From: Bacteroidota bacterium
Lineage (GTDB): Bacteria > Bacteroidota > Bacteroidia > UKL13-3
Assembly: GCA_947457395.1 (NCBI GenBank)
Contig: CANGVA010000008.1
Location: 32,629 to 96,628 of the forward strand
Direction of reading: 5' to 3'
DNA: 64,000 nt
Shown: positions 3,951 through 49,370 of the stretch, in pieces
Numbering within the stretch: the first letter of the stretch is position 1
How the letters are laid out: the number at the start of each line of letters is the position of its first letter
Position numbers and translations under genes: made by a program
Notes under the pieces: model-generated
What the model was told of the DNA's origin: nothing
The model's input: only the letters and a program-made list of their open reading frames with translations
Database searches by the model: none

Positions 3951-4535
3951 TTAAATATAAATTAGACCTTCATGTAACTGTCCGAAACTTTGATTGGTTT
4001 TGTTTTTGATGCGGTAAGCAATCAGCCAACATATCAATGCATCAGCATAGTGCCAGTTAGGTATTTCAAATGCCGGTAAATTTACATCAAATTTGTGCTT
4101 GAGTATTTCAATAAATTGTGGTGTTAATTCTTTCTCCTTCTTATTATATGAATCTGTCAGTTTAAATTCTTTTACAAAACCTCCGGGGTAACCCTCATAA
4201 AACTTAATGCCATGCAACACGGGGTCGTTTTTTAGTTTGATGGCTCGGGCAGTGAGCCCGCCTAGAAACATTGGCGACATGGCATTTAAGGCCTTATCGG
4301 AATGACGATAAAAATAATCTGTGCAGTCGGGCAAATTGTAATAAATTCCTGGAAGTGTGAGCGGGGCATCAATACAAACAAGTTCCGGCTTTATATTTAA
4401 AAGCATCAACTGAAGAAACTGATCTGCATCCTGTTTTACACGTGTGCCAACCAAATTTAGTTTCTCCGGATGATAACCATAACAGATTACCGTTGTTCCT
4501 GCAGTTTTACTACCATAATCAATACCTGCCAGCAT
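3951..4535 (-). CDS. DUF429-like protein, predicted RNase H-fold nuclease
   Basis: N-terminal 'AGIDYG', 'IDAPL', 'EGYPG' and 'DAL' acidic motifs typical of DUF429. Confidence 0.55.
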   Translation of the reverse strand: MLAGIDYGSKTAGTTVICYGYHPEKLNLVGTRVKQDADQFLQLMLLNIKPELVCIDAPLTLPGIYYNLPDCTDYFYRHSDKALNAMSPMFLGGLTARAIKLKNDPVLHGIKFYEGYPGGFVKEFKLTDSYNKKEKELTPQFIEILKHKFDVNLPAFEIPNWHYADALICWLIAYRIKNKTNQSFGQLHEGLIYI

Positions 4536-4679
4536 TTATTTGTTTTTATTTTTTTTACAACGTTCACTGCAATATTTCACCTCATCCCATACCAATGACC
4601 ATTTTTTTCTCCAGGTGAATGGTCTTGAACATATTTCACATGTTTTTGAGGGTAAATGCTGTTTTTTTACACCTTTCAT
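4536..4679 (-). CDS. DUF2256 family small Cys-rich protein (47 aa, absent from the ORF track)
   Basis: Manual translation MKGVKKQHLPSKTCEICSRPFTWRKKWSLVWDEVKYCSERCKKNKNK; CxxC-RPFxWRKKW-VKYCSxRC signature; ATGA overlap with the upstream gene. Confidence 0.9.
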   Translation of the reverse strand: MKGVKKQHLPSKTCEICSRPFTWRKKWSLVWDEVKYCSERCKKNKNK

Positions 4680-32499: not shown

Positions 32500-32805
32500 T
32501 TAGGCTAATTTGGCAGGTTCATCCAATGGGGCAAACCTATTGGGTTTTGCTTTAAAAGGCTGAATGAGCTCTTCTACCTTATCAATGATATAGCGGGCTT
32601 TTTGCACAATTTCTTCGCCATCTTTAGTGATGCGAATGGGAAGTGTGTTTCTGTCAAATATTTGTACACCCAATTTTTCTTCCATGGTTTTTACCTGTTG
32701 GCTAATGGTACTTTGCTCTGCATGGCAAAGGTCTGCAGCTTTAGAGAAACTGCCTGTTTCTGCCACTGCAATAACGTATTGTAACTGACGAAGGGTAACT
32801 AACAT
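32500..32805 (-). CDS. Short LysR-family (OxyR-like) protein containing only the HTH and linker helix
   Basis: 'TLRQLQYVIAVAETGSFSKAADLCHAEQSTISQQVKTMEEKLGVQIFDR'; 101 aa, ends without an effector domain. Confidence 0.8.
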   Translation of the reverse strand: MLVTLRQLQYVIAVAETGSFSKAADLCHAEQSTISQQVKTMEEKLGVQIFDRNTLPIRITKDGEEIVQKARYIIDKVEELIQPFKAKPNRFAPLDEPAKLA

Positions 32806-33038
32806 GTGGGGTACTTGTTTAATGCAATTTAAACAAAAACAGTAATAAATGGTTTTTTCGAAGTGTAAAATTATATAAACGGCCAAAATACCTAAGACAC
32901 AGAAATTGGAATCAGGATATTTGTTGTCAAAACTTACATTGAATTTTGCTTACTACATCCTTTTACTGCCTTCCATCTTTGTTGCTTAAAGTAATTTATG
33001 CTGCCTCCTAATGCAGCCTCAGCCATCTCATTAAAAAC

Positions 33039-33982: not shown

Positions 33983-35374
33983 TTATTGCAGTAGCGTAAT
34001 GAGCGCATTGGGGAAAATGCCCAATATGATGCCGCCTGCCACGCACACACCAGCTACCAACCAAAATGCAGGGGTTGGTTCCGGTATACTTTCGTTTGCC
34101 GGCTTGGTATACATGGCCAGTATGAGTTTAAAATAGTAATATACCCCAATGATGGAGTTGATAATGGCAATAAGGGTGAGTGTTACTTGTCCACTAATGA
34201 TGGCTTCTGAAAAAATATAGTACTTACCTAAAAAGCCTGCAAAGGGTGGTATGCCTGCCAGTGAAAGCATACTGATGGTGAGCATAGCTGCCATTAGCGG
34301 ATGTTTTTTGCCTAGGCCGTTAAATGCATCTACCTGCTCACTGTGCATAGCTGCAAATACAGGAATGGCCAGTGTAAATGCCCCTAATGTGGCAAGGCTG
34401 TATGTAGTACTGTAAAAAAACAACGCAGCTGCATTGCCACCGTTGATACTTAAAAGGGTAAGTAACATATAGCCTGCATGTGAAATACCTGAATAGGCCA
34501 ACAGCCTTTTTACATTTTGCTGGCTAAGTGCAACTACATTACCCAGTATGATGGTGGCAGCTGTTACAATGGCTAGTATATCTTGCGCATAGCTGAATGA
34601 GCCTGTGAAGCAAAGCAAGATGAGACGATAAAAGGCTGCAAATACTGCAACTTTAACCAGTGTTGACATAAGTGTAGTGATAAGTGCCGGTGCTCCTTCA
34701 TACACATCCGGACTCCAGAAGTGAAAAGGTACGGCAGCTACTTTAAACAGCATGGCTATTATCATAAGTAACATACCCAGGTAAAACAAGGGGCTTACAT
34801 TGCCCGACATGGCATATACAGAAATTTGCTGCATGATGAAACTGCCGCTGGTTCCATAAATAAGCGCAATGCCCAGTAATAAAAATCCGGAAGCAAAAGA
34901 ACCCAACAAAAAATATTTGAAACCTGCTTCATTTGAGCGCACATCAAACCTGCGGCTGCCTGCCATGATATAGAGGGAAATGGAAACAATTTCAATTCCC
35001 AGAAATAGCATGGCCATATTACTAAAACTAAATAATGCCAATGCTCCGCATAAAATAAATAGTAAGATGGACAGATAATCGCTCAGGTGATGCTGCTCAT
35101 TTTTATAATAGTCATGAGACAAAATGAAGATAAAGGCAGCCAGTAAGATACTGAGGCCACTAAAAGCAACAGAGAAGTGATCTACCGTGATCATATGACT
35201 CATGTTAATGCCATAAATTACCACATCACCGGTGTGATTCCAGTTGTTCATGTTTACATAAAATATAGCAGTGAGTGCAGCCAGGATGGCCGGTATCATT
35301 ATTTTGCGCAGGTTAAATACTTCTGCTATCATGCAGAATAATCCAAGTGCGGAGGTATAGAGTAAAGTATTCAC
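33983..35374 (-). CDS. nuoN: NADH-quinone oxidoreductase subunit N
   Basis: 'EAGFKYFLLG', 'PFHFWSPDVYEGAP', 'LAGIPPFAGF'; last gene of the operon. Confidence 0.93.
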   Translation of the reverse strand: MNTLLYTSALGLFCMIAEVFNLRKIMIPAILAALTAIFYVNMNNWNHTGDVVIYGINMSHMITVDHFSVAFSGLSILLAAFIFILSHDYYKNEQHHLSDYLSILLFILCGALALFSFSNMAMLFLGIEIVSISLYIMAGSRRFDVRSNEAGFKYFLLGSFASGFLLLGIALIYGTSGSFIMQQISVYAMSGNVSPLFYLGMLLMIIAMLFKVAAVPFHFWSPDVYEGAPALITTLMSTLVKVAVFAAFYRLILLCFTGSFSYAQDILAIVTAATIILGNVVALSQQNVKRLLAYSGISHAGYMLLTLLSINGGNAAALFFYSTTYSLATLGAFTLAIPVFAAMHSEQVDAFNGLGKKHPLMAAMLTISMLSLAGIPPFAGFLGKYYIFSEAIISGQVTLTLIAIINSIIGVYYYFKLILAMYTKPANESIPEPTPAFWLVAGVCVAGGIILGIFPNALITLLQ

Positions 35375-35384
35375 GTTGCTTCTT

Positions 35385-36833
35385 TTATTTAATCGTTGCT
35401 TTATTAAGTATTACTTCCAGTGCAGGTGCAGCCAGATCCAATATTGGTTTTGGATAAATGCCTGTAACAATAATTGTTAGTGCAATGGTGCCGAGTACTA
35501 ATCTTTCATTCCACATTAAATCCTGGAATGCAGAGGTTGTATCGCTTACATTACCCAGCATAACCCGCTGAAACATGCGCAGCATATACACAGCGCCCAA
35601 GATAATGGTGAGGCCGGCAAAAACCGATAGCCACGTATTGTATGCATAAACTCCAAAGAGCAGCAGGAACTCACCAATAAAACCATTGGTTAATGGTAAG
35701 GCTACACTGCCCAAAACCACAATCATAAATAAGGTGTTAAACTGAGGGGCTACATTTCTTATTCCTCCCAGTCCATCTATATTTAAGCTTTGCGTGCGGT
35801 TTAAAATAATATCGGCACAAAAGAACAGACCAACCACATTAATACCGTGTGCCACCATTTGCACAACGCTGCCTTGCAACCCCTGCATATTTAGTGCAAA
35901 AATGCCTGCACTAATTAAACCAACGTGTGCAACAGAAGAGTAGGCCAGTAATTTTTTTAAATCTCGCTGCATGATGGCAATAACAGATGCATACACAATT
36001 CCGATTACACATAGTGTAATGGCTAATGGCCCCCACTCGGCAACGCCTGCTGGTAAAATGGGCAATAGCCAGCGGATAAGTGAGTAGGTTCCCATTTTAA
36101 GCATAATGCCGGAAAGCAGCATGGTGCCTTGTGTTGGTGCTTCTTTATAGGTATCTGCCTGCCAGGTGTGAAAAGGTATGATAGGTATCTTGATAGCATA
36201 TGCCAGGAAAAATAACCAAAACAACCAGCCCTGTTTGCAGCTGCAAATAACATTGCTGTAAAGCTCACGAATATCAAAACTATGATTAGGGTTATACCAA
36301 TAGAGCATGATAAAACCAAAGAGCATAAGCAAGCTACCTGCCAGGGTGAATATAAAAAATTTAAGTGTAACCGGTACACGGTTGGGTCCGCCCCAGCGAA
36401 GTGCAATGAAATAGATGGGTATAAGTGCAAGCTCCCAGAAAATATAATAAAGCATGCCATCCATGGCAATGAATACACCAATAAGGGCAAACTGCATGAG
36501 GCTAATGAGTGCAAAATAGCTTCTGCTATTTTCTATGTTGCGGTTAAATGTTGACAGGATAATAAGTGGTACAAGAAAATTGGTTAGAGCCACCATAATA
36601 AGCCCAAGGCCATCCATACCCAGATGAAAACTTATTTTGGGATTGGTTATCCATTCCTGAAAAAAAGTAAGCATTTCGGAACCGCCTTGCTTAAATGTTT
36701 GATAGGTGAGCCATGTTAGAACAAGCTCAACTATTGATAAACCAAGGGCCAAACGTGATGCCCATTTGTTGCCCGATAAAAATATAAGCAACGATGCAAG
36801 GAGTGGCAGAAAAAGTAATTGTAGTAACATCAT
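35385..36833 (-). CDS. nuoM: NADH-quinone oxidoreductase subunit M
   Basis: 'FWE', 'KIPIIPFHTW', 'LKMGTY', 'AYSSVAH', 'GFIGEF'. Confidence 0.94.
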   Translation of the reverse strand: MMLLQLLFLPLLASLLIFLSGNKWASRLALGLSIVELVLTWLTYQTFKQGGSEMLTFFQEWITNPKISFHLGMDGLGLIMVALTNFLVPLIILSTFNRNIENSRSYFALISLMQFALIGVFIAMDGMLYYIFWELALIPIYFIALRWGGPNRVPVTLKFFIFTLAGSLLMLFGFIMLYWYNPNHSFDIRELYSNVICSCKQGWLFWLFFLAYAIKIPIIPFHTWQADTYKEAPTQGTMLLSGIMLKMGTYSLIRWLLPILPAGVAEWGPLAITLCVIGIVYASVIAIMQRDLKKLLAYSSVAHVGLISAGIFALNMQGLQGSVVQMVAHGINVVGLFFCADIILNRTQSLNIDGLGGIRNVAPQFNTLFMIVVLGSVALPLTNGFIGEFLLLFGVYAYNTWLSVFAGLTIILGAVYMLRMFQRVMLGNVSDTTSAFQDLMWNERLVLGTIALTIIVTGIYPKPILDLAAPALEVILNKATIK

Positions 36834-38764
36834 CAGATAAACAACCTTATTACGAGTAAAATAATCATTCCTGAAACCATGGCAAAAATATAGAAGCCGG
36901 TATTGCCTGTTTGTATTAATCGAATTGTTCTGCCTGTTAGCCCAACAAACCAGGCTGTGGCATTAACCAGCAAGTCAATGATGAGTTTATCAACCAGCAC
37001 CAGAAACAACTCAGATAAAACCTGTATGGGTTTAACAAACAATTTATCATACAGCTCATCTACATAAAATTTATTTACAATAGCTTTTTGCAATACCGGA
37101 AGTGCTTGCTCATCGCTGACAGGCAAGTTTCCTTTCGATACATATTGGTTGCGTGCATACAAGATGGCTGCAATGGCTGCTATGATAGCTGTTGCTATTA
37201 ATGCATATTCAGTTGCATGGCTGAGGTGATGTGCATGCGGAAGAAATTCTTTTGATGCATCTGTAACGTGTGAAAGGTACGCGGCAAAACGGTGAGTGAA
37301 ACCAAGTACTGCAGGAAGTCCCATGAAACCTCCAACAATAGAAAGAATGGCCAATATAACTAATGGAGTGGTCATGATTGCCGGACTCTCATGTATATGT
37401 TTTTTAGTTTCTTCGGTGCCTCTGAAGTTTCCGTTAAAAGTTAAGTATACCAACCGGAACATATAGAAAGCAGTCATCATAGCACTAATGGAGAGGATAC
37501 CCCAAACCAGCGGATTTTGCTCAAATGCTTTAGCAAGAATTTCGTCTTTAGAAAAGAATCCGGCAAAAGGAGGGATGCCTGAGATGGCCAATGAACCGAT
37601 AAGGAATGTGAAATAGGTTATTTTAATGTATTTGCCTAATCCGCCCATTTTACGAATATCCTGCTCGCCATGCAAGGCATGTATAACACTACCTGAGCCA
37701 AGGAAAAGCAAAGCTTTAAAGAAAGCATGTGTTACCACATGAAACATACCACTACTGAAAGCACCCAGGCCAAGTGCTGCAAACATTAAACCTAATTGAG
37801 AAACGGTAGAGTATGCCAATACTTTTTTGATATCATTTTGCATTAAACCAATTACTGCCGCAAAAACGGAGGTAGCCACACCGGTAATAAGCACCACATC
37901 AAGGGTGTGTGGGGCAAGTGCAAACAATACATTGGAGCGCACCACCATATAAATACCCGCAGTAACCATTGTAGCGGCATGAATGAGCGCAGAAACAGGA
38001 GTGGGGCCCGCCATGGCATCAGGTAACCAGGTGTACAAAGGAATTTGAGCTGATTTACCCATTGCACCAACAAACAATAATAGGGTAATGGTAACGATGA
38101 GTATATGATTGCTATCCAAACCTGCAGCTGCATTTGCTACACCATCAAAATCAAGTGTACCGAAATGAAACAGCATAAAAAACATGCCCAGCAGAAATCC
38201 CAAATCGCCAATGCGATTCATAACAAATGCTTTTTTGGCTGCATCGTTATACGCATCATTCTTAAACCAAAAACCAATGAGCAGATAGGAGCAGAGACCA
38301 ACACCTTCCCATCCGATAAACATCATCAGGTAGTTGTTGCCCATGATGAGTATGAGCATGAAAAATATAAACAGATTGAGATAGGTGAAAAAGCGGGTAA
38401 ACCCTTCATCATCGTGCATATAGCCGATGGAGTATAAGTGAATAAGGAAGCCAATCCCGCTAACTACCAGCAACATGGTGGTAGTTAGCGAATCTACTTG
38501 CAGGCCAAATGCGATAGAAGTATTCCCAAATGTAATCCAATTAAATAAATCAATATTGATTGAATTTGTTGCATCAAGCGCATTAAAAATAGAAACTGAA
38601 CATATGAATGAACCCAGTACTGCTAAGGAAGCTATCCATCCTGTGATACTTTTAGGCAGCCTTTTACCTGCCAGGCCATTAATTATAAATCCGATTAAAG
38701 GCAGCAATGGTACCAATAATGCGGGAGTTATTAGAGCGGTATCTTGTAAAATATTTTCAGTCAT
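36833..38764 (-). CDS. nuoL: NADH-quinone oxidoreductase subunit L
   Basis: 'GWEGVGLCSYLLIGFW', 'GKSAQIPLYTWLPDAMAGPTPVSALIHAATMV'. Confidence 0.96.
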   Translation of the reverse strand: MTENILQDTALITPALLVPLLPLIGFIINGLAGKRLPKSITGWIASLAVLGSFICSVSIFNALDATNSINIDLFNWITFGNTSIAFGLQVDSLTTTMLLVVSGIGFLIHLYSIGYMHDDEGFTRFFTYLNLFIFFMLILIMGNNYLMMFIGWEGVGLCSYLLIGFWFKNDAYNDAAKKAFVMNRIGDLGFLLGMFFMLFHFGTLDFDGVANAAAGLDSNHILIVTITLLLFVGAMGKSAQIPLYTWLPDAMAGPTPVSALIHAATMVTAGIYMVVRSNVLFALAPHTLDVVLITGVATSVFAAVIGLMQNDIKKVLAYSTVSQLGLMFAALGLGAFSSGMFHVVTHAFFKALLFLGSGSVIHALHGEQDIRKMGGLGKYIKITYFTFLIGSLAISGIPPFAGFFSKDEILAKAFEQNPLVWGILSISAMMTAFYMFRLVYLTFNGNFRGTEETKKHIHESPAIMTTPLVILAILSIVGGFMGLPAVLGFTHRFAAYLSHVTDASKEFLPHAHHLSHATEYALIATAIIAAIAAILYARNQYVSKGNLPVSDEQALPVLQKAIVNKFYVDELYDKLFVKPIQVLSELFLVLVDKLIIDLLVNATAWFVGLTGRTIRLIQTGNTGFYIFAMVSGMIILLVIRLFI

Positions 38765-38776
38765 TACCAATATGAA

Positions 38777-39097
38777 TTACCATTTCAACTTATTCAAAAC
38801 ATTAATATCCGTGCTGGCCACATTGCGATAGATGCTCATAAGCAACGCAAGTCCAACGGCCACTTCTGCTGCGGCCACCACCATTATAAAAAACACAAAT
38901 ACCTGCCCGTCACTATTTCCTTTATATGCAGAGAAGGATACCAGTAGCAGATTTACCGAGTTTAGCATGAGTTCAATGCACATGAGGATAATAATGGCAT
39001 TTCTGCGCATGAGTACGCCCATCACGCCAATGCAAAACAAGAAGGCGCTTAACAGCAGATACCAGTTTTGAGGAATAGTTTGTATGGTGTTTTCCAT
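38777..39097 (-). CDS. nuoK: NADH-quinone oxidoreductase subunit K
   Basis: 'RRN', 'IELMLN', '[10 protein letters not shown]'. Confidence 0.95.
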
Positions 39098-39115
39098 TGT
39101 TTGTTTTTCGTGGTT

Positions 39116-39613
39116 TTATCTTTTTTCTTTTTTAGCCAGCAATACTGAGCCAATCATGGCAGAGAGGAAAAGGATGGATGATACCTCAAATGGCAACAGA
39201 TAATCTGTGAATAATTTTTGTCCGATAATTTCTACCAGTCCGATATTGGATTTAACCGGCAGGTGGTATGCACCGGGTATGCCTGCCTTAAGAGAAGCAA
39301 TAATGGTTAAGAATAATATGCCACCGGCTATTACCGCAGCAAATTTTATTTTACTGGTCTTATGTGGTTCAGTTTCTGCATTCAGGTTTAACAACATTAC
39401 CACAAAAAGAAACAATACCATGATGGCACCGGCATACACAATCAGGTGCACAATTGCCAGAAACTGTGCGTTGAGCATAATATAATGCCCTGCAACTGTA
39501 AAAAAGCAAGCTATTAACGACAATACACTATACATCGGGTTTTTGGCAAACAAAACGCCCAATGCACTAATGATTGTTAATGCTGAAAGAATAAAAAATA
39601 TGGTTTGGCTCAT
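39116..39613 (-). CDS. nuoJ: NADH-quinone oxidoreductase subunit J
   Basis: 'VYAGAIMVLFLFVVML', 'PFE'. Confidence 0.94.
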   Translation of the reverse strand: MSQTIFFILSALTIISALGVLFAKNPMYSVLSLIACFFTVAGHYIMLNAQFLAIVHLIVYAGAIMVLFLFVVMLLNLNAETEPHKTSKIKFAAVIAGGILFLTIIASLKAGIPGAYHLPVKSNIGLVEIIGQKLFTDYLLPFEVSSILFLSAMIGSVLLAKKEKR

Positions 39614-39637: not shown

Positions 39638-40192
39638 TTATTTGGTTGATTCACCTGTCATTTCATACATCTTCTTACGTTTTCCAATATCTACACGCTC
39701 TTGTGGGTTTACTCCTTCAACCAATACATCTTTACCATAAACAAAATTGCCACGTGTATAGGCAGAAGGCACAATTCTATCGGTTAGGTAAATGGCATCT
39801 TTGGGGCAAGCCTCTTCACATAAGCCACAATATATGCAGCGCAGCATATTAATTTCATATTTTGCTGCATATTTTTCCTCCCGATACAAATGTTCTTCAC
39901 CTTTTTTGCGTTCGGCAGCCTCCATTGTAATAGCCTCTGCTGGGCAAGCAACAGCGCACAAGCCACAGGCAGTACAATTCTCTCTGCCTTTCTCATCTCG
40001 TTTCAACACATGCATGCCCCTGTAGACAGGTGCTATTTCTCTTTTTACTTCGGGATACCTTACCGTTGCACTTTTTCTGAACAAGTGTTTAATGGTGATG
40101 GAGAGCCCTTGTAATATGGCAGGCAGGTATAGCTTCTCAATGAATGTAAGCTCTCTTTTTACAACTACTTTAGATCGGTTTGTTAATTGCAT
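39638..40192 (-). CDS. nuoI: NADH-quinone oxidoreductase subunit I
   Basis: Two CxxCxxCxxxCP 4Fe-4S motifs; ATG at 40192. Confidence 0.95.
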   Translation of the reverse strand: MQLTNRSKVVVKRELTFIEKLYLPAILQGLSITIKHLFRKSATVRYPEVKREIAPVYRGMHVLKRDEKGRENCTACGLCAVACPAEAITMEAAERKKGEEHLYREEKYAAKYEINMLRCIYCGLCEEACPKDAIYLTDRIVPSAYTRGNFVYGKDVLVEGVNPQERVDIGKRKKMYEMTGESTK

Positions 40193-40196
40193 GTTT

Positions 40197-40748
40197 TTAC
40201 TCAATTATTCCGTCAACAATTCCGTAAGCCAATGATTCCTGAGCGTGCATCCAGTAATCGCGGTCCATATCTGCCATTACTTTATCAAATGGCTGGCCGC
40301 AGTTTTTAGAAAGTATTTCACCACCCAGTTTTTTCGTTTTTATAATCTCGGTTGCCTGGATTTGGATATCTGATGACTGACCTTGTGCACCCCCACTTGG
40401 CTGGTGTATCATAACCTTGGCATGCGGATGTATAAATCTGCGACCTTTTTTACCTACTGAAAGCAGGATAGAACCCATAGAGGCGGCTAATCCCATACAT
40501 ACGGTTGATACAGGCGATTTAAGCGATAGTATGGTATCATACATGGCAAAGCCTGAGGTAACATAACCTCCTGGGCTATTAATGATAAGGGTAATTTCTT
40601 TACCCGGATCCATCATATCTAAATATAGTAAGCGGTCAATCACATGCTTGGCCGATTCATCATCAACCTGACCCCATAAAAATACTTTCCGATCGGTAAG
40701 GAGTTTAGCATCTATGATATCTGCCATTTTTTTGTTGTTGTCTTCCAT
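40197..40748 (-). CDS. clpP: Clp protease proteolytic subunit located inside the nuo operon
   Basis: 'INSPGG', 'GLAASMG' (Ser), 'MIHQP' (His), 'DRDYWM' (Asp), 'YGIVD'. Confidence 0.93.
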   Translation of the reverse strand: MEDNNKKMADIIDAKLLTDRKVFLWGQVDDESAKHVIDRLLYLDMMDPGKEITLIINSPGGYVTSGFAMYDTILSLKSPVSTVCMGLAASMGSILLSVGKKGRRFIHPHAKVMIHQPSGGAQGQSSDIQIQATEIIKTKKLGGEILSKNCGQPFDKVMADMDRDYWMHAQESLAYGIVDGIIE

Positions 40749-40756
40749 GGTTGTCG

Positions 40757-41782
40757 TTATTTAACAAATGTCATCCAGGCACCTGTGATTAATACATTAA
40801 TTATTGAAAGTGGAATTAATATCATCCATCCCAACCGCATTAGCTGATCATAGCGGAAACGGGGGAGGGTCCAGCGCACCCACATAAAGAATAGTATAAA
40901 GAAGATGATTTTGGCAAACAATACGGCAACACTAACAATGGCTGCAATATTTTGCGGCAAATCCAAACTATCAATGCCTGGGAAGTGATATCCGCCAAAG
41001 TAAAGCGATGCAATAATTGCCGATGAGATGAACATGTTAATGTATTCTGCAAAAAGGAACAAGCCGAGTTTCATAGAGCTGAATTCAGTGTGGTATCCTC
41101 CAATTAGTTCTGACTCGCTTTCAGGCAAATCAAAAGGTGCACGGTTACATTCTGCAAATGCGCAAATTAAAAATATCAAGAATCCCAGTGGCTGATAAAA
41201 TACGTTCCATTGGCCGTGTTGCTGAGCATCTACAATATCGCGCAGGTTGAGCGAATTATTAAACAACAATAAGGCAATAATGCTCATACCCATGGATAGT
41301 TCATAGCTTATCATCTGCGATGAAGCACGCAAAGCGCCAAGCAAGGCGAATTTGTTGTTGGATGCCCAACCGCCAATCATAATGCCATAACCGCCTATGG
41401 ATACAACTGCAAAAATGTAGAGTATACCTACATTGAGGTCGGCTACCTGAAGGCTAAATTCGTGTCCACCAAAATTGAAGGATTTTCCCCATGGAATTAC
41501 TGCACTGGTCATAAGGGCCGTCATCATAAAAATACAAGGACCAATAATGAACAGGAATTTGTCAGAGGCATTTGGTATGATTTCTTCTTTTAAAAACATC
41601 TTCACACCATCGGCAATAGGTTGCAGTAAACCAAATGGCCCGGCACGATCAGGACCAATGCGGTCCTGCAGAAATGCAGCTACTTTTCTTTCGCCATAGG
41701 TTGCGTATGCGGCAATGCCAAGGCTTACCAAAAATATGATAACAACCAGTATTGCTTTATCCAATAGTAGAGTATAGTCCAT
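40757..41782 (-). CDS. nuoH: NADH-quinone oxidoreductase subunit H
   Basis: 'ERK...QDRIGP', 'QPIADGVK', 'NRAPFDLPESESEL', 'PRFRYDQ'. Confidence 0.96.
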   Translation of the reverse strand: MDYTLLLDKAILVVIIFLVSLGIAAYATYGERKVAAFLQDRIGPDRAGPFGLLQPIADGVKMFLKEEIIPNASDKFLFIIGPCIFMMTALMTSAVIPWGKSFNFGGHEFSLQVADLNVGILYIFAVVSIGGYGIMIGGWASNNKFALLGALRASSQMISYELSMGMSIIALLLFNNSLNLRDIVDAQQHGQWNVFYQPLGFLIFLICAFAECNRAPFDLPESESELIGGYHTEFSSMKLGLFLFAEYINMFISSAIIASLYFGGYHFPGIDSLDLPQNIAAIVSVAVLFAKIIFFILFFMWVRWTLPRFRYDQLMRLGWMILIPLSIINVLITGAWMTFVK

Positions 41783-42747
41783 TATTCAGTGATGGCTTTA
41801 ATGTCGTTTAATGTAAATTCTTTTGGTTTAACCAGCTGTGCATATTTGTTGGCTGAAATAACTGAGTGGCGGTTGATAGGGGCTGGGCCCTCAATCACCC
41901 AATCGCTAGTTTGTTTTTTGTCAAAGCGGCAGGTATTGCAAATAAATTCTTCCACTTCTCCCCACTGGTCTTTTCTTCCGGTTACGCGTAATACGTCTTC
42001 ACCTTTGTACCAGAGGGCCACCTTACCGCTGCACTTATCACAATTGCGATGCGCATACATTGGTTTGGTAAACCATACGCGGCTTTTAAATCGGAATGTT
42101 TTATCAGTTAACGCACCAACTGGGCAAACATCAATTACATTACCCGAAAAATCATTATCAATGGCTTGCTGTACGTAGGTAGAAATTTCTGCATGATCTC
42201 CACGATTAATTACACCGTGCACGCGTCCATCTGTGATTTGCTCGGCTGTTTTAACGCAACGGTAGCAAAGGATACAGCGTGTCATGTGCAGTTGTATCTT
42301 CTCACCTATATCAATCTTCTCAAACGTTCTGCGCTCAAACTCTGTTCGTGTTTTATAATTGCCATGCTCATAGCTCAGATCTTGCAGGTGGCATTCACCT
42401 GCCTGATCACAAACAGGGCAATCCAGCGGATGGTTTAATAATAAAAACTCAACCACACCTGCACGAGCGTCATAGACTTTTTCAGAAGTGGTATTTTTAA
42501 CTTCCATTCCGTCCATTACCGCTGTGCGGCAACTGGCCACCAGTTTAGGCATGGGGCGCGGGTCTTTTTCAGAACCTTTGCTCACTTCCACCAAACAAGT
42601 GCGGCAATAACCGCCACTGGTTTTTAGTTTACTGTAATAGCACATAGTAGGAGGGGCCACATCGGGGCCAATCATACGTGCAGCTTGCAGAATAGTTGTT
42701 CCGTCTGCAACTTCAATTGTTATTCCGTCTATGGTTACTTTTGCCAT
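41782..42747 (-). CDS. nuoG: NADH-quinone oxidoreductase subunit G (short, Fe-S domains only)
   Basis: 'CRTCLVE', 'HPLDCPVCDQAGEC', 'CILCYRC', 'CPVGAL'; 321 aa. Confidence 0.9.
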   Translation of the reverse strand: MAKVTIDGITIEVADGTTILQAARMIGPDVAPPTMCYYSKLKTSGGYCRTCLVEVSKGSEKDPRPMPKLVASCRTAVMDGMEVKNTTSEKVYDARAGVVEFLLLNHPLDCPVCDQAGECHLQDLSYEHGNYKTRTEFERRTFEKIDIGEKIQLHMTRCILCYRCVKTAEQITDGRVHGVINRGDHAEISTYVQQAIDNDFSGNVIDVCPVGALTDKTFRFKSRVWFTKPMYAHRNCDKCSGKVALWYKGEDVLRVTGRKDQWGEVEEFICNTCRFDKKQTSDWVIEGPAPINRHSVISANKYAQLVKPKEFTLNDIKAITE

Positions 42748-42756
42748 AAATCTAAA

Positions 42757-44118
42757 TTATAAGCTGCTGTAAGCCGCAGCGGCATCTAAGTTATTGCAAT
42801 GAAAATAATATTTCACATCAGGTATAGATTGCCTATTATTAACGTAAGCTTCAAACTCTGATCTGAAATGGCGGATTGCACTGGCTACAGGCCATGCTGC
42901 AGCATCTCCCAGCGGACAAATAGTATTGCCTTCAATTTTTCTTTGAATGTCCCATAGTAAATCAACATCCGCGAGTGTGCCATGCCCGTCAAGAATCTTA
43001 TGCAGTATTTTTTCCATCCATCCTGTTCCTTCACGGCAAGGACTGCATTGCCCGCAACTTTCATGGTGATAGAAGCGAGCAAAAGTGTGGAGGTTTTTTA
43101 CGATACTGGTGCTTTCATCCATCACAATAAAGCCGCCTGATCCCAGCATGGTGCCTGCAGCAAAACCGCCATCGGCAAGGCTTTCATAGGTCATCAGGCG
43201 TTTTTCCCCATTAGCTGTTTTTAAAATTAAGTCGGCCGGCAAAATTGGAACAGAAGATCCGCCTGCAACCACAGCCTTTAGTTTTTTATCGTTTAAAATG
43301 CCACCGCAATATTCATCTGAGTAAATAAACTCTTCAACTGAAATGCCTAGTTCAATTTCATATACACCCGGTTTTTTAATATGGCCTGATGCTGAAATAA
43401 GTTTGGTACCTGTTGATTTACCAATACCAATGGCCGCATAAGCCTCGCCTCCATCGTTTACAATAGGAACAACTGCTGCAATAGTTTCTACATTATTTAC
43501 CACAGTAGGGCATTCCCATAAACCTTTCACGGCAGGGAATGGAGGTTTGATGCGCGGATTGCCACGTTTGCCTTCGAGCGATTCAAGCAAAGCAGTCTCC
43601 TCACCACATATATACGCACCGGCACCGCATTGCACATGCATATCAAGATTGTAACCTGTGCCCAGTATATTTTTACCTAACCAGCCGTTTGCATAAGCCT
43701 CACTGATTGCTTTTTCTAAAATCTTAATAATATAAAAGTACTCTCCTCTTACATAAATGTATCCTGTATTGGCACCCAGCGCATAGCTTGAAGTTATCAT
43801 GCCCTCAATAAGCAGATGCGGAATACGTTCCATCAGATAACGGTCTTTAAAAGTACCCGGTTCAGATTCATCGGCATTGCAAACCAGGTAGCGCGGCACA
43901 CCTTCAGGCTTTGCCAGAAAGCTCCATTTCATTCCGGTAGGAAAACCTGCGCCTCCGCGACCTCTCAATCCGGATTTCTTTACTTCTTCAACTACCGCAT
44001 CAGGTGTCATGGTTTTTAAAGCCTTTTCAACGCTTCTGTAGCCACCATTTTTGCGGTATAACTCGTAAGAGTGTATGCCTTCAATATGATCGTTTTCTAA
44101 TAATAATTTTCTGCCCAT
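42757..44118 (-). CDS. nuoF: NADH-quinone oxidoreductase subunit F
   Basis: 'GLRGRGGAGFPTG', 'NADESEPG', 'GAGAYICGEE', 'ESCGQCSPCREG'. Confidence 0.97.
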   Translation of the reverse strand: MGRKLLLENDHIEGIHSYELYRKNGGYRSVEKALKTMTPDAVVEEVKKSGLRGRGGAGFPTGMKWSFLAKPEGVPRYLVCNADESEPGTFKDRYLMERIPHLLIEGMITSSYALGANTGYIYVRGEYFYIIKILEKAISEAYANGWLGKNILGTGYNLDMHVQCGAGAYICGEETALLESLEGKRGNPRIKPPFPAVKGLWECPTVVNNVETIAAVVPIVNDGGEAYAAIGIGKSTGTKLISASGHIKKPGVYEIELGISVEEFIYSDEYCGGILNDKKLKAVVAGGSSVPILPADLILKTANGEKRLMTYESLADGGFAAGTMLGSGGFIVMDESTSIVKNLHTFARFYHHESCGQCSPCREGTGWMEKILHKILDGHGTLADVDLLWDIQRKIEGNTICPLGDAAAWPVASAIRHFRSEFEAYVNNRQSIPDVKYYFHCNNLDAAAAYSSL

Positions 44119-44197
44119 TCTTTTATGTTTAAGCCACAGTTTAATATATTCTTAAGCCATCACAGCATGCATGCAAATTATCTAAGGTGTTCATGCA

Positions 44198-44743
44198 TTA
44201 TATTTTTCTGAACGTATCTGTATTCAAATAGGTGCTATGGTTTGTTGCATCCTTCCACTCTTCTAAAATTTTATCAACCTTATCAAGTGTCAGGTTCTCA
44301 TGAAACGTTTGCCCAATCTGTAGCATGGGTGCTGTTCCGCAACTGCCTAAACACTCAACCGTTTTAAGGGTATACTTTCCGTCTGCAGTGGTTTCACCGT
44401 CTTTAATACCCAATCTCTTTTCAATATGTTTCACAACATCTTCTGCTCCGCGCAGCCAGCAGCTGCTTGTTCGGCAAACTTCTATCAGGCATTTACCAAC
44501 AGGTTTCAGGTTATACATAGAATAGAATGAAGCTACTTCATACACCTCTATTGGTTGCAGATTAAGCAGTTCAGCAACTTTATCCATCACCGGAACACTC
44601 AGCCATCCGTCATGCTCAGCCTGTGCAATGTGCAGGGCCGGTAGCAGCGCAGATTTATGTTTGCCTTCCGGATAGCGTTTGGTTAAATTCTTAATTAGTG
44701 CCTCCGATTCCGGAGTAAAACTTATGTTTTTTGAATCACTCAT
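44198..44743 (-). CDS. nuoE: NADH-quinone oxidoreductase subunit E
   Basis: CRTSSC and ECLGSC 2Fe-2S ligands. Confidence 0.94.
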   Translation of the reverse strand: MSDSKNISFTPESEALIKNLTKRYPEGKHKSALLPALHIAQAEHDGWLSVPVMDKVAELLNLQPIEVYEVASFYSMYNLKPVGKCLIEVCRTSSCWLRGAEDVVKHIEKRLGIKDGETTADGKYTLKTVECLGSCGTAPMLQIGQTFHENLTLDKVDKILEEWKDATNHSTYLNTDTFRKI

Positions 44744-44753
44744 GTTATTTCAA

Positions 44754-45959
44754 TTATGCATCCAGTTCTCCTGCAATTACATTCATGCTACTCATGGTTA
44801 AAATTGCATCACTAAGCATTCCTCCTTTGATCATTTCCGGATATGCTTGATAATAAATGAAGCATGGCCTGCGGAAATGCAATTTGTATGGTGCACGACC
44901 GCCATCACTCAGTAAATAAAATCCCAGTTCACCGTTACCGCCTTCTACTGCATGATAGACCTCTCCTTTAGGCACATCGCTTTCGCCCATTACTATTTTA
45001 AAGTGCCAGATAAGGGCTTCCATATTGTGGTATACATCTTCTTTTGGAGGAAGATAAAATTCAGGCACATCAGCATACCATTTTCCTGATGGCAGGTTAT
45101 CCATGGCCTGTTGTATAATTTTTAAACTTTCTCTTATTTCTTGCTGACGAACCATGAAGCGATCGTATGTATCACCATTTACACCAATAGGAATGGTAAA
45201 GTCAAAATCTTCATAGGAGCTATATGGGTTCATGATGCGTACGTCATAATCAACGCCTGCTGCCCTTAGGTTAGGGCCGGTAAACCCATAACTAAGCGCG
45301 CGCTCTGCAGTAATAGGTCCGGTATGCATAACACGGTCAACAAAGATTCTGTTTCTTTCAAGTAGGTTACTAAATTCATCAAAGATTTTCGGGAAGTCGC
45401 GCAGGAATTCTTTTATTTTTTTTATGGCTTCATCATTAAAATCTCTTTCCATTCCGCCAATGCGCCCTATATTGGTTGTGAGGCGTGCTCCGCAAATCTG
45501 TTCAAAAATATCGTAGATTTTTTCGCGCCACTGAAAAACATAAGTAAACCCAGTTAAGGCTCCTGTATCAACACCAACCACTGCGTTGCAAACAAGGTGA
45601 TCAGCAATACGTGCCAACTCCATAATAATAACGCGCATGTATTGTGCACGCTTAGGAATATCAACACCAATGAGTTTCTCAACGGTCATATGCCAGCCCA
45701 TATTGTTAATAGGCGAGGAGCAGTAGTTGAGTCGGTCTGTTAATGTTGTAATCTGGTAATATGGTCTGCGTTCTGCAATTTTTTCAAAGGCACGGTGAAT
45801 ATATCCTACAGTTTGCTCGGCATCCACCACAATTTCGCCATCCATTTTAAGGATATTTTGGAAAATGCCGTGGGTGGCAGGGTGGGTTGGACCAAGGTTG
45901 AGCGTGGTATATTCAGGCTCTTCAATTTGTTCTATGCTTTTATCGTCAAATTCGTTCAT
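44754..45959 (-). CDS. nuoD: NADH-quinone oxidoreductase subunit D
   Basis: 'GPTHPATHG', 'GYIHRAFEK', 'DRLNY', 'GELD'. Confidence 0.95.
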   Translation of the reverse strand: MNEFDDKSIEQIEEPEYTTLNLGPTHPATHGIFQNILKMDGEIVVDAEQTVGYIHRAFEKIAERRPYYQITTLTDRLNYCSSPINNMGWHMTVEKLIGVDIPKRAQYMRVIIMELARIADHLVCNAVVGVDTGALTGFTYVFQWREKIYDIFEQICGARLTTNIGRIGGMERDFNDEAIKKIKEFLRDFPKIFDEFSNLLERNRIFVDRVMHTGPITAERALSYGFTGPNLRAAGVDYDVRIMNPYSSYEDFDFTIPIGVNGDTYDRFMVRQQEIRESLKIIQQAMDNLPSGKWYADVPEFYLPPKEDVYHNMEALIWHFKIVMGESDVPKGEVYHAVEGGNGELGFYLLSDGGRAPYKLHFRRPCFIYYQAYPEMIKGGMLSDAILTMSSMNVIAGELDA

Positions 45960-45974
45960 GAAACTGCTTGGGTT

Positions 45975-46481
45975 TTATCTGCCAAAGTATTGATCATCCT
46001 TATCTGTTCTGGTACCATCTTCCAGCGGAAATTCTTTACGCAGCGGGAAATAATCCATTTCATCTACGTTTAATATCCGTTGAAGGTTAGGATGGCCTGT
46101 AAACTGAATGCCATAATAATCGTACGTTTCACGTTCCATCCAGTTTGCTGAAGGGAATAATCCGGTAAGGGAAGGTACCTCAGGTTTAGAGATTGGAACA
46201 AAACATTTTAAACGTATTCTAAAGTTGTTTGGCATGCTTTGCATATGGTAAATGGCGCAAAGCTCTTTCCCCGGAACTTGCGGAAAATGACTGCCACAAA
46301 TATCGGTTAAGAAATGTGCGTTAATTACCGAATGATTTTTAAGCCACTCTACAACGGAGGTAATGGCTGAAACTTCTACAACAACAGTAAGCATGCCATA
46401 TGGCTCATCGGTAGATAAAATGACATCACCAAATTGCTTATAAAGTTCTTCCGAAACGAATTGATTGGTTATTTCTGCCAT
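45975..46481 (-). CDS. nuoC: NADH-quinone oxidoreductase subunit C
   Basis: 'ANWMERETYDYYGI.F.GHP', 'PLRKEFPL'. Confidence 0.93.
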   Translation of the reverse strand: MAEITNQFVSEELYKQFGDVILSTDEPYGMLTVVVEVSAITSVVEWLKNHSVINAHFLTDICGSHFPQVPGKELCAIYHMQSMPNNFRIRLKCFVPISKPEVPSLTGLFPSANWMERETYDYYGIQFTGHPNLQRILNVDEMDYFPLRKEFPLEDGTRTDKDDQYFGR

Positions 46482-46483
46482 GC

Positions 46484-47029
46484 TTATTGAATGCCGTAAG
46501 ATCCTAACAATGCTTTATATTCAGTTGAATTTCTTCTTCTGAGAGATTCATTTTTTACGAGTTCCTGTATTTGCATAAACCCATCAATTATCTGCTCGGG
46601 TCTTGGAGGGCAGCCAGGAACATACACATCAACCGGAATTACCTTGTCAATTCCCTGCAAAACGGAGTATGTATCAAATATGCCACCGCTTGAGGCACAG
46701 GCACCAACGGATAAAACCCAGCGCGGCTCAGCCATTTGCAAGTATACCTGACGCAAAACGGGACCCATTTTTTTTGCAATTGTTCCGGCAACAATAAGTA
46801 AATCCGCCTGTCGAGGAGAAAAGCTGATACGTTCTGAACCAAAACGGGCAAGATCATAATTGGAGCCCATAGTGGCCATAAATTCAATACCACAGCAGGA
46901 TGTGGCAAACGGCAAAGGCCAGATAGAATTTGCTCTAGCCAAACCAATAGCTTTTTCAAGCGAGGTAGCAAAGAAACCGGGTCCTTCAACTCCGGCCGGC
47001 ATTTCTGCTATTGTAATTTCTTTCGACAT
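46484..47029 (-). CDS. nuoB: NADH-quinone oxidoreductase subunit B
   Basis: 'SCCGIE', 'SPRQAD', 'GACA', 'PGCPPRPE'; ATG at 47029. Confidence 0.95.
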   Translation of the reverse strand: MSKEITIAEMPAGVEGPGFFATSLEKAIGLARANSIWPLPFATSCCGIEFMATMGSNYDLARFGSERISFSPRQADLLIVAGTIAKKMGPVLRQVYLQMAEPRWVLSVGACASSGGIFDTYSVLQGIDKVIPVDVYVPGCPPRPEQIIDGFMQIQELVKNESLRRRNSTEYKALLGSYGIQ

Positions 47030-47051
47030 ATCCTGAGTAAATACTTTTAAA

Positions 47052-47414
47052 TTATTCCCACTTAAGGGCACCTTTTTTAATAATATAAACAAAGCCAATA
47101 AGTAAGGTGCCAATAAACAATACCATCTCAACAAACCCAACAGCACCCAAGGCTTTAAAGTTTACAGCCCACGGATACATGAAAATTACCTCTACATCAA
47201 ACATTACAAAAAGGATGGCTGTCAGAAAATACTTAATGGAGAAAGGCAATCGTGCATTGCCGACACTCTCAATTCCGCACTCAAAGTTTTCAAGTTTATC
47301 TGATGTTTTGCGTCTTGGTCCAACATAATGTGTAACCAGCATGGTTGTAACAACAAAACCCGCTGCAACAGAGAACTGTATAACTAAAGCCAAATAATCT
47401 ATTGATGACGACAT
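47052..47414 (-). CDS. nuoA: NADH-quinone oxidoreductase subunit A
   Basis: 'FECG', 'FDVE', 'YPWA', 'KGALKW'. Confidence 0.95.
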   Translation of the reverse strand: MSSSIDYLALVIQFSVAAGFVVTTMLVTHYVGPRRKTSDKLENFECGIESVGNARLPFSIKYFLTAILFVMFDVEVIFMYPWAVNFKALGAVGFVEMVLFIGTLLIGFVYIIKKGALKWE

Positions 47415-47761: not shown

Positions 47762-48076
47762 TTACAGTATTTTATGGATCAGTGCCTCAACCCCCTCTTC
47801 TTTGGCAGTAGTATCAGCTCCTATGAGTTTTCCACTTTTGAATACGGCAAAAAATGGGAGATTGCTTACACCAGCCAACTTGCGTGCAGCAGGATTTTCT
47901 TCGGCATTTATGTCTAAGAACAGAACGTTTTTATATTCATCTTTCTCAGCAATTTTTTTAAATTTCGGGGCAAATAGCCGACAAGTTCCACACCATCCGG
48001 CAAAGAATTTAATCACTACCTTTTCGTTTTTCTCCAGTAATTGCTGAAAGTCAGCATCTGTTGCAAGGGTAACCAT
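47762..48076 (-). CDS. Thioredoxin family protein
   Basis: WCGTC active site and 'NLPFFA'. Confidence 0.85.
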   Translation of the reverse strand: MVTLATDADFQQLLEKNEKVVIKFFAGWCGTCRLFAPKFKKIAEKDEYKNVLFLDINAEENPAARKLAGVSNLPFFAVFKSGKLIGADTTAKEEGVEALIHKIL

Positions 48077-48131
48077 GTTGTTAGATTTTAATTACAATAA
48101 AGACACAAAAAAACGTGAAATGTTTGCAAAT

Positions 48132-48162
48132 AAAAAGCCCACTGAGTTCTTCAGGGGGCTTT
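48132..48162 (-). terminator. Intrinsic terminator
   Basis: AAAAAGCCC-A-CTGA...TCAG-G-GGGCTTT hairpin downstream of the minus-strand gene 48183-49370. Confidence 0.6.
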
Positions 48163-48182
48163 ATAAATAACGTTATATTTCT

Positions 48183-49370
48183 TTATGGCTTAAATGGTAT
48201 CATTGACTGCAGGTTTAAACCTACCCCGGCTGTAAGCATATTGTACTCTGCAAAGGTATAATCTGCATGGAAGGTTAAAATAGCTAGTTTTATTCTGGCG
48301 CCAAAGGTTGCTCTGAAACCGCTGATAGTACCGGTTATTTTTACAGGATCTTTTTCGGTTAAATTTACTCTTTTCTTTGTTGGAATGTTGGGGTCGAAAT
48401 CGGCTTCTCCTGGCATAATGAATGTTGTAAATGGATACTGTCCTTCTACGGTAAGATCAGTTGTGGCCCGCTGATAGCCAAAGCCGGCATAGGGGGTAAA
48501 GAATAATAATTTTGCGGATACCAGTAATTGTGCATTCCATGCGGTTGAATTAATGCTAATCTGCTGTGTGGATGTTGGTTTGGAATTATTGTTAATGATA
48601 TTCCCATTAGGAGAGGTGCTGCCATAAGGAGCATCAGGCTGTAACTCATCCAATCCCAATGTTGAATTAAATTGGGTATATCCAAAAAAGCCGGCAATAT
48701 CCCATATTTTTTGTTCTTTAATAACCGGTATCCATTGCTTGATATCATGCTTAATACCAAAGCCCCATAAGCCAATTTCAAAAGACTCCTGTTTGATTTT
48801 AGGAACATAACGAATAATAATTTCTGTATTCTTGTAAATACCAAGGGCAATATTGGCAGATGGTGAACCAAAAATATTGATGCCCATACCTGCAGGCATC
48901 CGGAAGCTAGCCATCGTTGTATCTCTGCTAAATGGGTTGGGCGAGCCCGGATTATTCTGGTTATAATATACCCAGGCTGGGTTGGTAGTATTAATATCCA
49001 AGATAGGAGCAGCGCTCTCATTATTTGAGCCAAATACTGTGGGTCCGGAAATTGCATTTCCCTGAGGTTTTAAAATAGTTAATCCACTTAAAGGGAAGGT
49101 AAGATCGGCAGTAGGGGTAATTGCCAGATTGGCGCAAATGGTAATATCAAAACCAAGTGTGCCATGGGGTCGGGCTGTATTGTACCAACCATTGTTTAAC
49201 GAGGATCCAAAAGACTTTAGTACCGGACTAAAATAACCATTAAGTAAGATATTGGCATCAGCAACTCCACCTTTCATTAGGTTGGATGCATCGCTCTGCG
49301 CATTTGTAATCTGGCTCGCACAGAAGAGGAGCGTTCCAAGTACAAGTTTAGGTAGAAATTGTTTTTTCAT
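48183..49370 (-). CDS. Outer-membrane protein, DUF6588-like
   Basis: Signal peptide; 'LNNGWYNTARPH', 'RYVP', 'GIKHDIKQW'; beta-strand C-terminus. Confidence 0.65.
   Translation of the reverse strand: MKKQFLPKLVLGTLLFCASQITNAQSDASNLMKGGVADANILLNGYFSPVLKSFGSSLNNGWYNTARPHGTLGFDITICANLAITPTADLTFPLSGLTILKPQGNAISGPTVFGSNNESAAPILDINTTNPAWVYYNQNNPGSPNPFSRDTTMASFRMPAGMGINIFGSPSANIALGIYKNTEIIIRYVPKIKQESFEIGLWGFGIKHDIKQWIPVIKEQKIWDIAGFFGYTQFNSTLGLDELQPDAPYGSTSPNGNIINNNSKPTSTQQISINSTAWNAQLLVSAKLLFFTPYAGFGYQRATTDLTVEGQYPFTTFIMPGEADFDPNIPTKKRVNLTEKDPVKITGTISGFRATFGARIKLAILTFHADYTFAEYNMLTAGVGLNLQSMIPFKP

Follow-up and report, generated by a model that had tools for sequence, protein, structure and literature searches.

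In ClpP peptidases, an N-terminal axial loop normally gates the pore and helps to dock the ATPase, and second ClpP subunits alter Clp specificity and regulation in Listeria, Pseudomonas, mycobacteria, and Chlamydia. The protein described here, ClpP2, is encoded within a complex I (nuo) operon of a member of the Bacteroidota and shares with canonical ClpP (E. coli; PF00574, MEROPS S14) the fold family, the catalytic triad, and the Arg-Asp pair. It differs from canonical ClpP in that it has no axial-loop motif, is shorter at both ends (183 aa as compared to 228 aa in ClpP1), stays below the equivalog cut-offs, and is not encoded beside clpX.

According to an extract of the respective report, PaClpP2 of Pseudomonas aeruginosa shows activity only when complexed with ClpP1, the subunit to which ClpX binds (PMC12451819). 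In Pseudomonas, a second paralogue with an atypical N-terminus likewise stands beside a canonical ClpP1, whereas the Bacteroidota family is known from sequences. PaClpP2 is not known to lie in a respiratory operon. For the ClpP of Mycobacterium tuberculosis, part of a further report describes an asymmetric core, and the same part names a loop at the N-terminus together with a hydrophobic patch in the docking of chaperones (PMC4416901). The mycobacterial ClpP1P2 consists of two paralogous rings with the ATPases docking on one face only, and its tandem genes resemble the loci of family f35 treated below. It belongs, however, to another phylum and probably goes back to an independent duplication, and in the genome of our window the two genes are unlinked.

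A link between ClpP and complex I also exists in mitochondria, where ClpXP turns over the N-module of complex I, as the preliminary description of our locus had stated in agreement with an extract of the source (PMC7118099); in our case, it is the gene order that suggests co-expression. Mitochondria have a single canonical CLPP without gene linkage, whereas here there is linkage, although comparison across genomes does not connect the ClpP2 family with complex I. Titles and abstract openings of open-access papers and preprints contained nothing on a clpP inside a nuo operon or on a second ClpP family in Bacteroidota, and such a second family appears not to have been described before.

The nuo operon is among the most conserved operons, and the insertion of clpP2 is an unusual interruption. 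In the window, i.e., the whole 64,000-nt stretch that was analysed, the genes are arranged as follows, listed from nuoA to nuoN:

41782..47414, minus strand: nuoA, B, C, D, E, F, and G, the upstream part of the operon (PF00507, PF01058, PF00329, PF00346, PF01257, PF01512/PF10589, PF22117/PF10588)
40757..41782, minus strand: nuoH (PF00146, E 6.9e-122)
40749..40756, minus strand: spacer of 8 nt separating the nuoH stop from the clpP2 ATG, from the sequence
40197..40748, minus strand: clpP2, a 183-aa ClpP-family paralogue with ATG start (PF00574, E 4.4e-68)
40193..40196, minus strand: spacer of 4 nt separating the clpP2 stop from the nuoI ATG, from the sequence
39638..40192, minus strand: nuoI, starting at the conserved ATG 40192 (TIGR01971, 135.5 bits versus a cut-off of 113; Fer4 domains)
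33983..39613, minus strand: nuoJ, K, L, M, and N, the downstream part of the operon (PF00499, PF00420, PF00361 three times, and PF00662)

All 14 of the 14 subunits, each Pfam-confirmed, lie in canonical nuoA-N order on one strand, the minus strand, and the operon begins at 47414 and ends at 33983. The nuoH stop codon is at 40757-40759, the clpP2 ATG at 40748-40746, and the clpP2 stop at 40197-40199. The preliminary description had placed a clpP between nuoH and nuoI, on the strand of an otherwise canonical operon and with gaps of 8 and 4 nt. This layout holds with the nuoI start at ATG 40192; what had gone unnoticed is that the operon runs on the minus strand and that the ClpP is missing its N-terminal loop. 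The nuoI ATG at 40192 (ATGCAATTAAC) is kept in all 10 filled junctions of relatives that were compared and in most of the empty ones. A TTG at 40204, which automatic ORF extension had offered as the nuoI start, was rejected, as the relatives keep ATG 40192.

Judging from this layout, clpP2 is most likely transcribed together with the complex I genes, on account of the very short spacers, the common strand, and junctions at which no terminator was seen. A consensus scan found no terminator-like site at either the nuoH-clpP2 or the clpP2-nuoI junction. Among the 10 filled junctions of relatives, the nuoH-clpP2 spacer is very short in some and reaches about 30 nt in others. Over the whole operon, there was no clear excess over shuffled sequences (46 promoter-like sites versus 41.3 +/- 6.9, and 22 terminator-like sites versus 13.6 +/- 4.9), where the promoter scan follows the sigma-70 consensus, Bacteroidota-type promoters lie outside its model, and an internal promoter within nuoH is possible. 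RNA-library contigs of two studies match at 99% identity or more, but just over 40347-40740, within clpP2; such contigs prove no transcription and cannot rank expression. In the 3.8-kb stretch compared, no RNA contig bridged either clpP2 junction, and the flanking nuoH and nuoI were unmatched. In seven RNA runs, only 5-6% of the sampled words were present, and four of these runs were aligned to the stretch.

The NuoG of this operon is short, with 321 aa (41782-42747, minus strand) that match the first 260 of the 606 positions of TIGR01973 (294 bits versus a cut-off of 470). It is without the large C-terminal domain of proteobacterial NuoG, and the relatives align over the same 321 aa. Upstream of nuoA (47762-49370, minus strand), a thioredoxin (PF00085) and a DUF6588 protein are encoded, and downstream of nuoN (32500-32886, minus strand), there is a 128-aa frame with only the HTH domain of LysR-type proteins.

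ClpP2 matches the CLP_protease profile PF00574 with 229.2 bits (cut-off 20.2), covering positions 6-180 of 182. The housekeeping equivalog model TIGR00493 is missed (210.8 versus a cut-off of 308.6 bits), and the subfamily model NF009205 is just reached (229.3 versus 228 bits). Of the solved ClpPs in the PDB, the best chains match with E 3e-57 and about 50% identity, and query residue ~9 aligns to chain residue ~17. We aligned the window ClpP2 with E. coli ClpP, 34 canonical Bacteroidota ClpPs, and 55 ClpP2 relatives. The catalytic positions, which we take to be Ser97, His122, and Asp171 of E. coli, are conserved in every row, including 55 of 55 ClpP2 rows. In ClpP2 itself, these are the invariant S90, H115, and D164, and the motifs GLAASMG, MIHQP, and DRD that had been noted as signs of an intact triad are all found in the translation. 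The Arg-Asp pair beside the catalytic Asp is kept as well, and FLWG and GGYVTSG are signatures of the paralogue family.

In comparisons with three congeners and one other genus, clpP2 has a dN/dS of 0.024-0.073 with saturated dS, and nuoH, nuoI, and nuoJ reach 0.010-0.042 where computable. clpP2 is under strong purifying selection, and the protein is a selected, probably catalytic ClpP.

The N-terminal axial-loop motif I-E-E-R..N is present in 34 of 34 canonical ClpP1 rows and in 0 of 55 ClpP2 rows. As the open frame of clpP2 in the window comprises only 187 aa, with four codons upstream of the ATG at most, a longer N-terminus is impossible. The AlphaFold2 model of ClpP2, which was based on 26 aligned sequences and has a mean pLDDT of 90.3, begins with a helix of residues 2-18 and has no N-terminal hairpin. 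In the putative ATPase docking pocket, for which we assume a set of E. coli residue positions, Leu48, Ile90, and Leu189 are kept in the alignment, Tyr62 is replaced by Ile, and the position of Phe82 is occupied by Ser. In the column corresponding to E. coli Tyr62, the nuo-embedded clade has Ile throughout (15 of 15 rows), and standalone ClpP2 nearly always has Tyr or Phe (21 of 22).

The host genome (2.54 Mb in 34 contigs, 99.96% complete) contains two strong PF00574 matches and one weak match (21 bits, in a 619-aa frame). The embedded clpP2 is on contig 8, and the other strong match is the canonical ClpP1 of 228 aa on contig 16 (266.5 bits), directly followed by a 411-aa frame with an AAA_2 match that we read as clpX. 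The gene in the nuo operon is a second ClpP, in agreement with its earlier classification as a paralogue; it adjoins neither clpP1 nor clpX, and its product is 51% identical to ClpP1 of the same genome. As NuoH (PF00146) has only a single match in the host genome, clpP2 sits in the sole complex I operon that this genome has. Besides ClpX, two Hsp100-class AAA_2 proteins are encoded (C5:74633-75145 and C15:32674-33195, in frames of 877 and 850 aa).

A pattern scan with one genome per species recovered at least 592 stretches related to clpP2, the best 80 loci of which were examined; 78 of these are from other lineages, and the remaining two are contigs of genomes that are counted below with the family of the window genome. 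Most of these best 78 outside loci are from Flavobacteriaceae (Maribacter, Arenibacter, Aquimarina, Cellulophaga), with 69-78% identity and a length of mostly 183 aa, and no nuo genes were found in their flanks of up to 4 kb. In samples of the class and the phylum, 20 of 401 and 37 of 401 genomes, respectively, have a ClpP2-like gene, the latter including other classes with 68-76% identity. From these two samples, 38 loci were fetched (18 + 20), and again no nuo genes were found nearby, which amounts to 0 of 116 loci examined outside the family. A tandem clpP1-clpP2 arrangement occurs in 9 of the 38 fetched loci, with clpX next in seven of them. Beside standalone clpP2, no partner gene recurs across lineages; the neighbors reflect synteny at the genus level, without respiratory genes. 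Among five Flavobacteriaceae genomes with a ClpP2 of 69-78% identity, all five have a canonical ClpP, and NuoH (PF00146) is absent from four.

A ClpP tree of 89 rows was obtained by a quick IQ-TREE search with SH-aLRT support only; left out were three of every four Flavobacteriaceae scan loci, duplicates, partial sequences below 150 aa, and L001, L002, L011, L012, L035, and L125-L138. Canonical ClpP (34 rows) and ClpP2 (55 rows) are split with an SH-aLRT of 100, so that a clade separate from the canonical copy, which the preliminary description had considered, is borne out. The nuo-embedded copies form one clade (15 of 15 rows, support 99), which groups with standalone ClpP2 of Flavobacteriaceae (94), and the tandem ClpP2 copies form a separate clade (99) inside the paralogue family. 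On this tree, the nuo position is a derived state within a ClpP2 family that is Bacteroidota-wide. A horizontal origin of clpP2 was also considered and is not claimed: ClpP1 of the family groups with f35 and ClpP2 with Flavobacteriaceae, and the path lengths are similar and the support is moderate.

We favor, with moderate confidence and partly by analogy, the explanation that ClpP2 is an old and functional ClpP paralogue that would act as a partner ring for ClpP1/ClpX; in one lineage, the nuo operon probably captured the gene, which would be expressed along with it. The ClpP2 family has kept the Ser-His-Asp site and lost the canonical N-terminal axial loop. Its genes stand in tandem as clpP1-clpP2(-clpX) in some lineages and alone among unrelated genes in most, and one copy became fixed between nuoH and nuoI in a single order-level lineage that includes this genome. 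By analogy to Pseudomonas and mycobacteria, the catalytic ClpP2 ring would pair with a canonical ClpP1 ring, and ClpX would dock on the ClpP1 face. We infer this mixed ClpP1/ClpP2 assembly because of the tandem clpP1-clpP2-clpX operons, the Pseudomonas system, and the asymmetric mycobacterial core. The location in the nuo operon would couple the dosage of clpP2 to the expression of the respiratory chain and would be no mark of a protease specific for complex I.

Several of these features would also fit an open-pore peptidase that is independent of an ATPase, in which ungated ClpP2 homo-oligomers degrade peptides or unfolded chains without ClpX and the operon position is an accident of expression. 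The axial-loop motif is missing in 55 of 55 ClpP2 rows, the model has no N-terminal hairpin, several of the assumed E. coli pocket positions are altered (Tyr62 to Ile, Phe82 position to Ser), and most clpP2 genes stand alone, away from clpX. We nevertheless regard this as rather unlikely, as the tandem clpP1-clpP2-clpX order in seven loci argues for joint action with ClpP1 and ClpX and as a peptidase with no gate would put the cell at risk. Moreover, second ClpPs with odd N-termini are inactive alone, as stated for PaClpP2 in the extract of the report mentioned above (PMC12451819).

The GTDB family of the window genome comprises the whole order, with 119 genomes in 17 genera. Counting 18 genomes with matches at E 1e-70 or better and two fragments at contig ends (G002, G133), 20 of the 119 carry clpP2. 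These carriers are found in four genera, namely g1 (5 of 5 genomes), g2 (6 of 17), g8 (3 of 19), and g14 (6 of 8), and the 13 other genera have none (0 of 70). Within the reach of the contigs, all 20 carriers have clpP2 directly next to nuoH and/or nuoI, with gene order and strand unchanged, and the embedded orthologues are 74-93% identical at an unchanged position. In contrast to the 20 genomes with clpP2, 114 of the 119 have nuoH. Empty sites, with nuoI following nuoH after 13-146 nt, were found in 26 genomes of six genera, ten of them in g2. When these 26 spacers were compared by short-word blastn with 10 filled sites, only the flanking nuoH and nuoI ends matched, and no clpP remnants were detected. 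When presence and absence of the insert are mapped on a 42-row tree of nuoH, at least seven changes are required, at least three of which are forced by well supported branches. The nuoH-clpP2-nuoI arrangement is conserved yet dispensable among close relatives, as the 26 empty sites and the repeated presence changes on the nuoH tree demonstrate. For the synteny suggested in the preliminary description, this means that the order is not unique to this genome, with 20 carriers in four genera, but that it was not seen beyond the family, with 0 of 116 loci examined outside.

In many genomes of the family, a second, distant NuoH of 43-48% identity was found, which suggests a second operon of the NDH-1 type in these genomes; the listed clpP2 carriers have a single nuoH, genes split between contigs aside. 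The longer empty spacers of g8 (L174, L176-L181) have in common a perfect palindrome, GACGTTGCATGCAACGTC, and repeated AAATTCGAA units, and this palindrome with its repeats between nuoH and nuoI may be a REP-like element or an attenuator.

The same family data bear on a lineage-specific neofunctionalisation, according to which ClpP2, once the nuo operon had captured it, turned into a protease for the quality control or maturation of complex I and is produced in step with its substrates. Such a role would account for the tight same-strand embedding with spacers of 8 and 4 nt, for the unchanged position in 20 of 20 carriers of four genera, for a dN/dS of clpP2 as low as that of the nuo genes, for the substitutions specific to the nuo clade, and for the fact that the sole nuo operon of the host carries clpP2. 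It would also have a parallel in mitochondrial ClpXP, which removes damaged N-module subunits according to the extract of the source (PMC7118099). Against it, close relatives have the same operon without clpP2, with 26 empty sites, ten of them in g2, where only 6 of 17 genomes are carriers, and presence changed at least seven times on the nuoH tree, at least three times by force of supported branches. Furthermore, the ClpP2 family is older than the insertion and present in genomes without NuoH, and in no other lineage examined is ClpP2 tied to respiratory genes. We consider neofunctionalisation unlikely.

A protease dedicated to complex I, as the preliminary description had proposed, is unlikely on comparative grounds, because the ClpP2 family sits elsewhere in other Bacteroidota, including species without complex I. 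The orthologues in unrelated loci (0 of 116 near nuo), the four of five Flavobacteriaceae carriers without NuoH, and the 26 empty sites speak against the proposal, and a necessary role in complex I is disfavored by the history of the family and by sister species that naturally lack the gene. Several points nevertheless weigh against our preferred explanation of a captured partner ring. In this genome, clpP2 is neighbor to neither clpP1 nor clpX, and no RNA contig spans its junctions. A position kept in 20 genomes of four genera under strong selection is also predicted by a function linked to complex I, and the nuo clade's own substitutions, such as the Ile at the Tyr62 position, could reflect a new role. 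We find it quite improbable that, in this order-level lineage, a ClpP without a gate was recruited to the complex I operon to act in assembly or to mend the NADH-oxidising arm, which would make it the equivalent, in a free-living bacterium, of the salvage pathway run by mitochondrial ClpXP. A recently transferred, functionless gene that hitch-hikes or decays would explain the patchy distribution (20 of 119 genomes) and the clean empty sites without remnants, but is hardly credible in view of the intact frame in all full-length copies, the conserved triad, a dN/dS of 0.02-0.07 with saturated dS, and orthologues that diverged to 74-93% identity with the position kept.

The ClpP2 clade delimited here extends across the phylum, has its active site intact, lacks the axial loop, and occurs in three settings, i.e., in tandem with clpP1 and clpX, alone, and in nuo. 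The presence or absence of clpP2 among close relatives constitutes a natural experiment on whether a Clp peptidase serves a bacterial complex I. If it does not, the locus is a clear-cut case of a gene captured by an operon, and to read functional coupling into it would go too far.

Some side aspects concern the ClpP2 loci outside the family. The genome of L166 (G038, about 0.5 Mb in 9 contigs) has two ClpP genes, one of which is ClpP2-like and lies next to ribosomal protein genes; this copy has a very long branch of 1.65 and a deviant composition, and its grouping with ClpP2 is unsafe. Standalone clpP2 has a GNAT acetyltransferase gene as neighbor in Aquimarina and in two f11 family genomes (L055 3421-3846, L152 3549-3992, L154 3411-3863), and a cNMP-binding (Crp-like) protein is encoded just upstream of clpP2 in three genomes of family f39 (L158 3368-3946, L159 4572-5168, L163 3333-3944). 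In ClpP2 copies that stand in tandem with clpP1 and clpX (L153, L156, L160, L162, L164, and L165, at about 4510-4640 each), strongly acidic N-terminal tails with runs of E and D replace the axial-loop motif.
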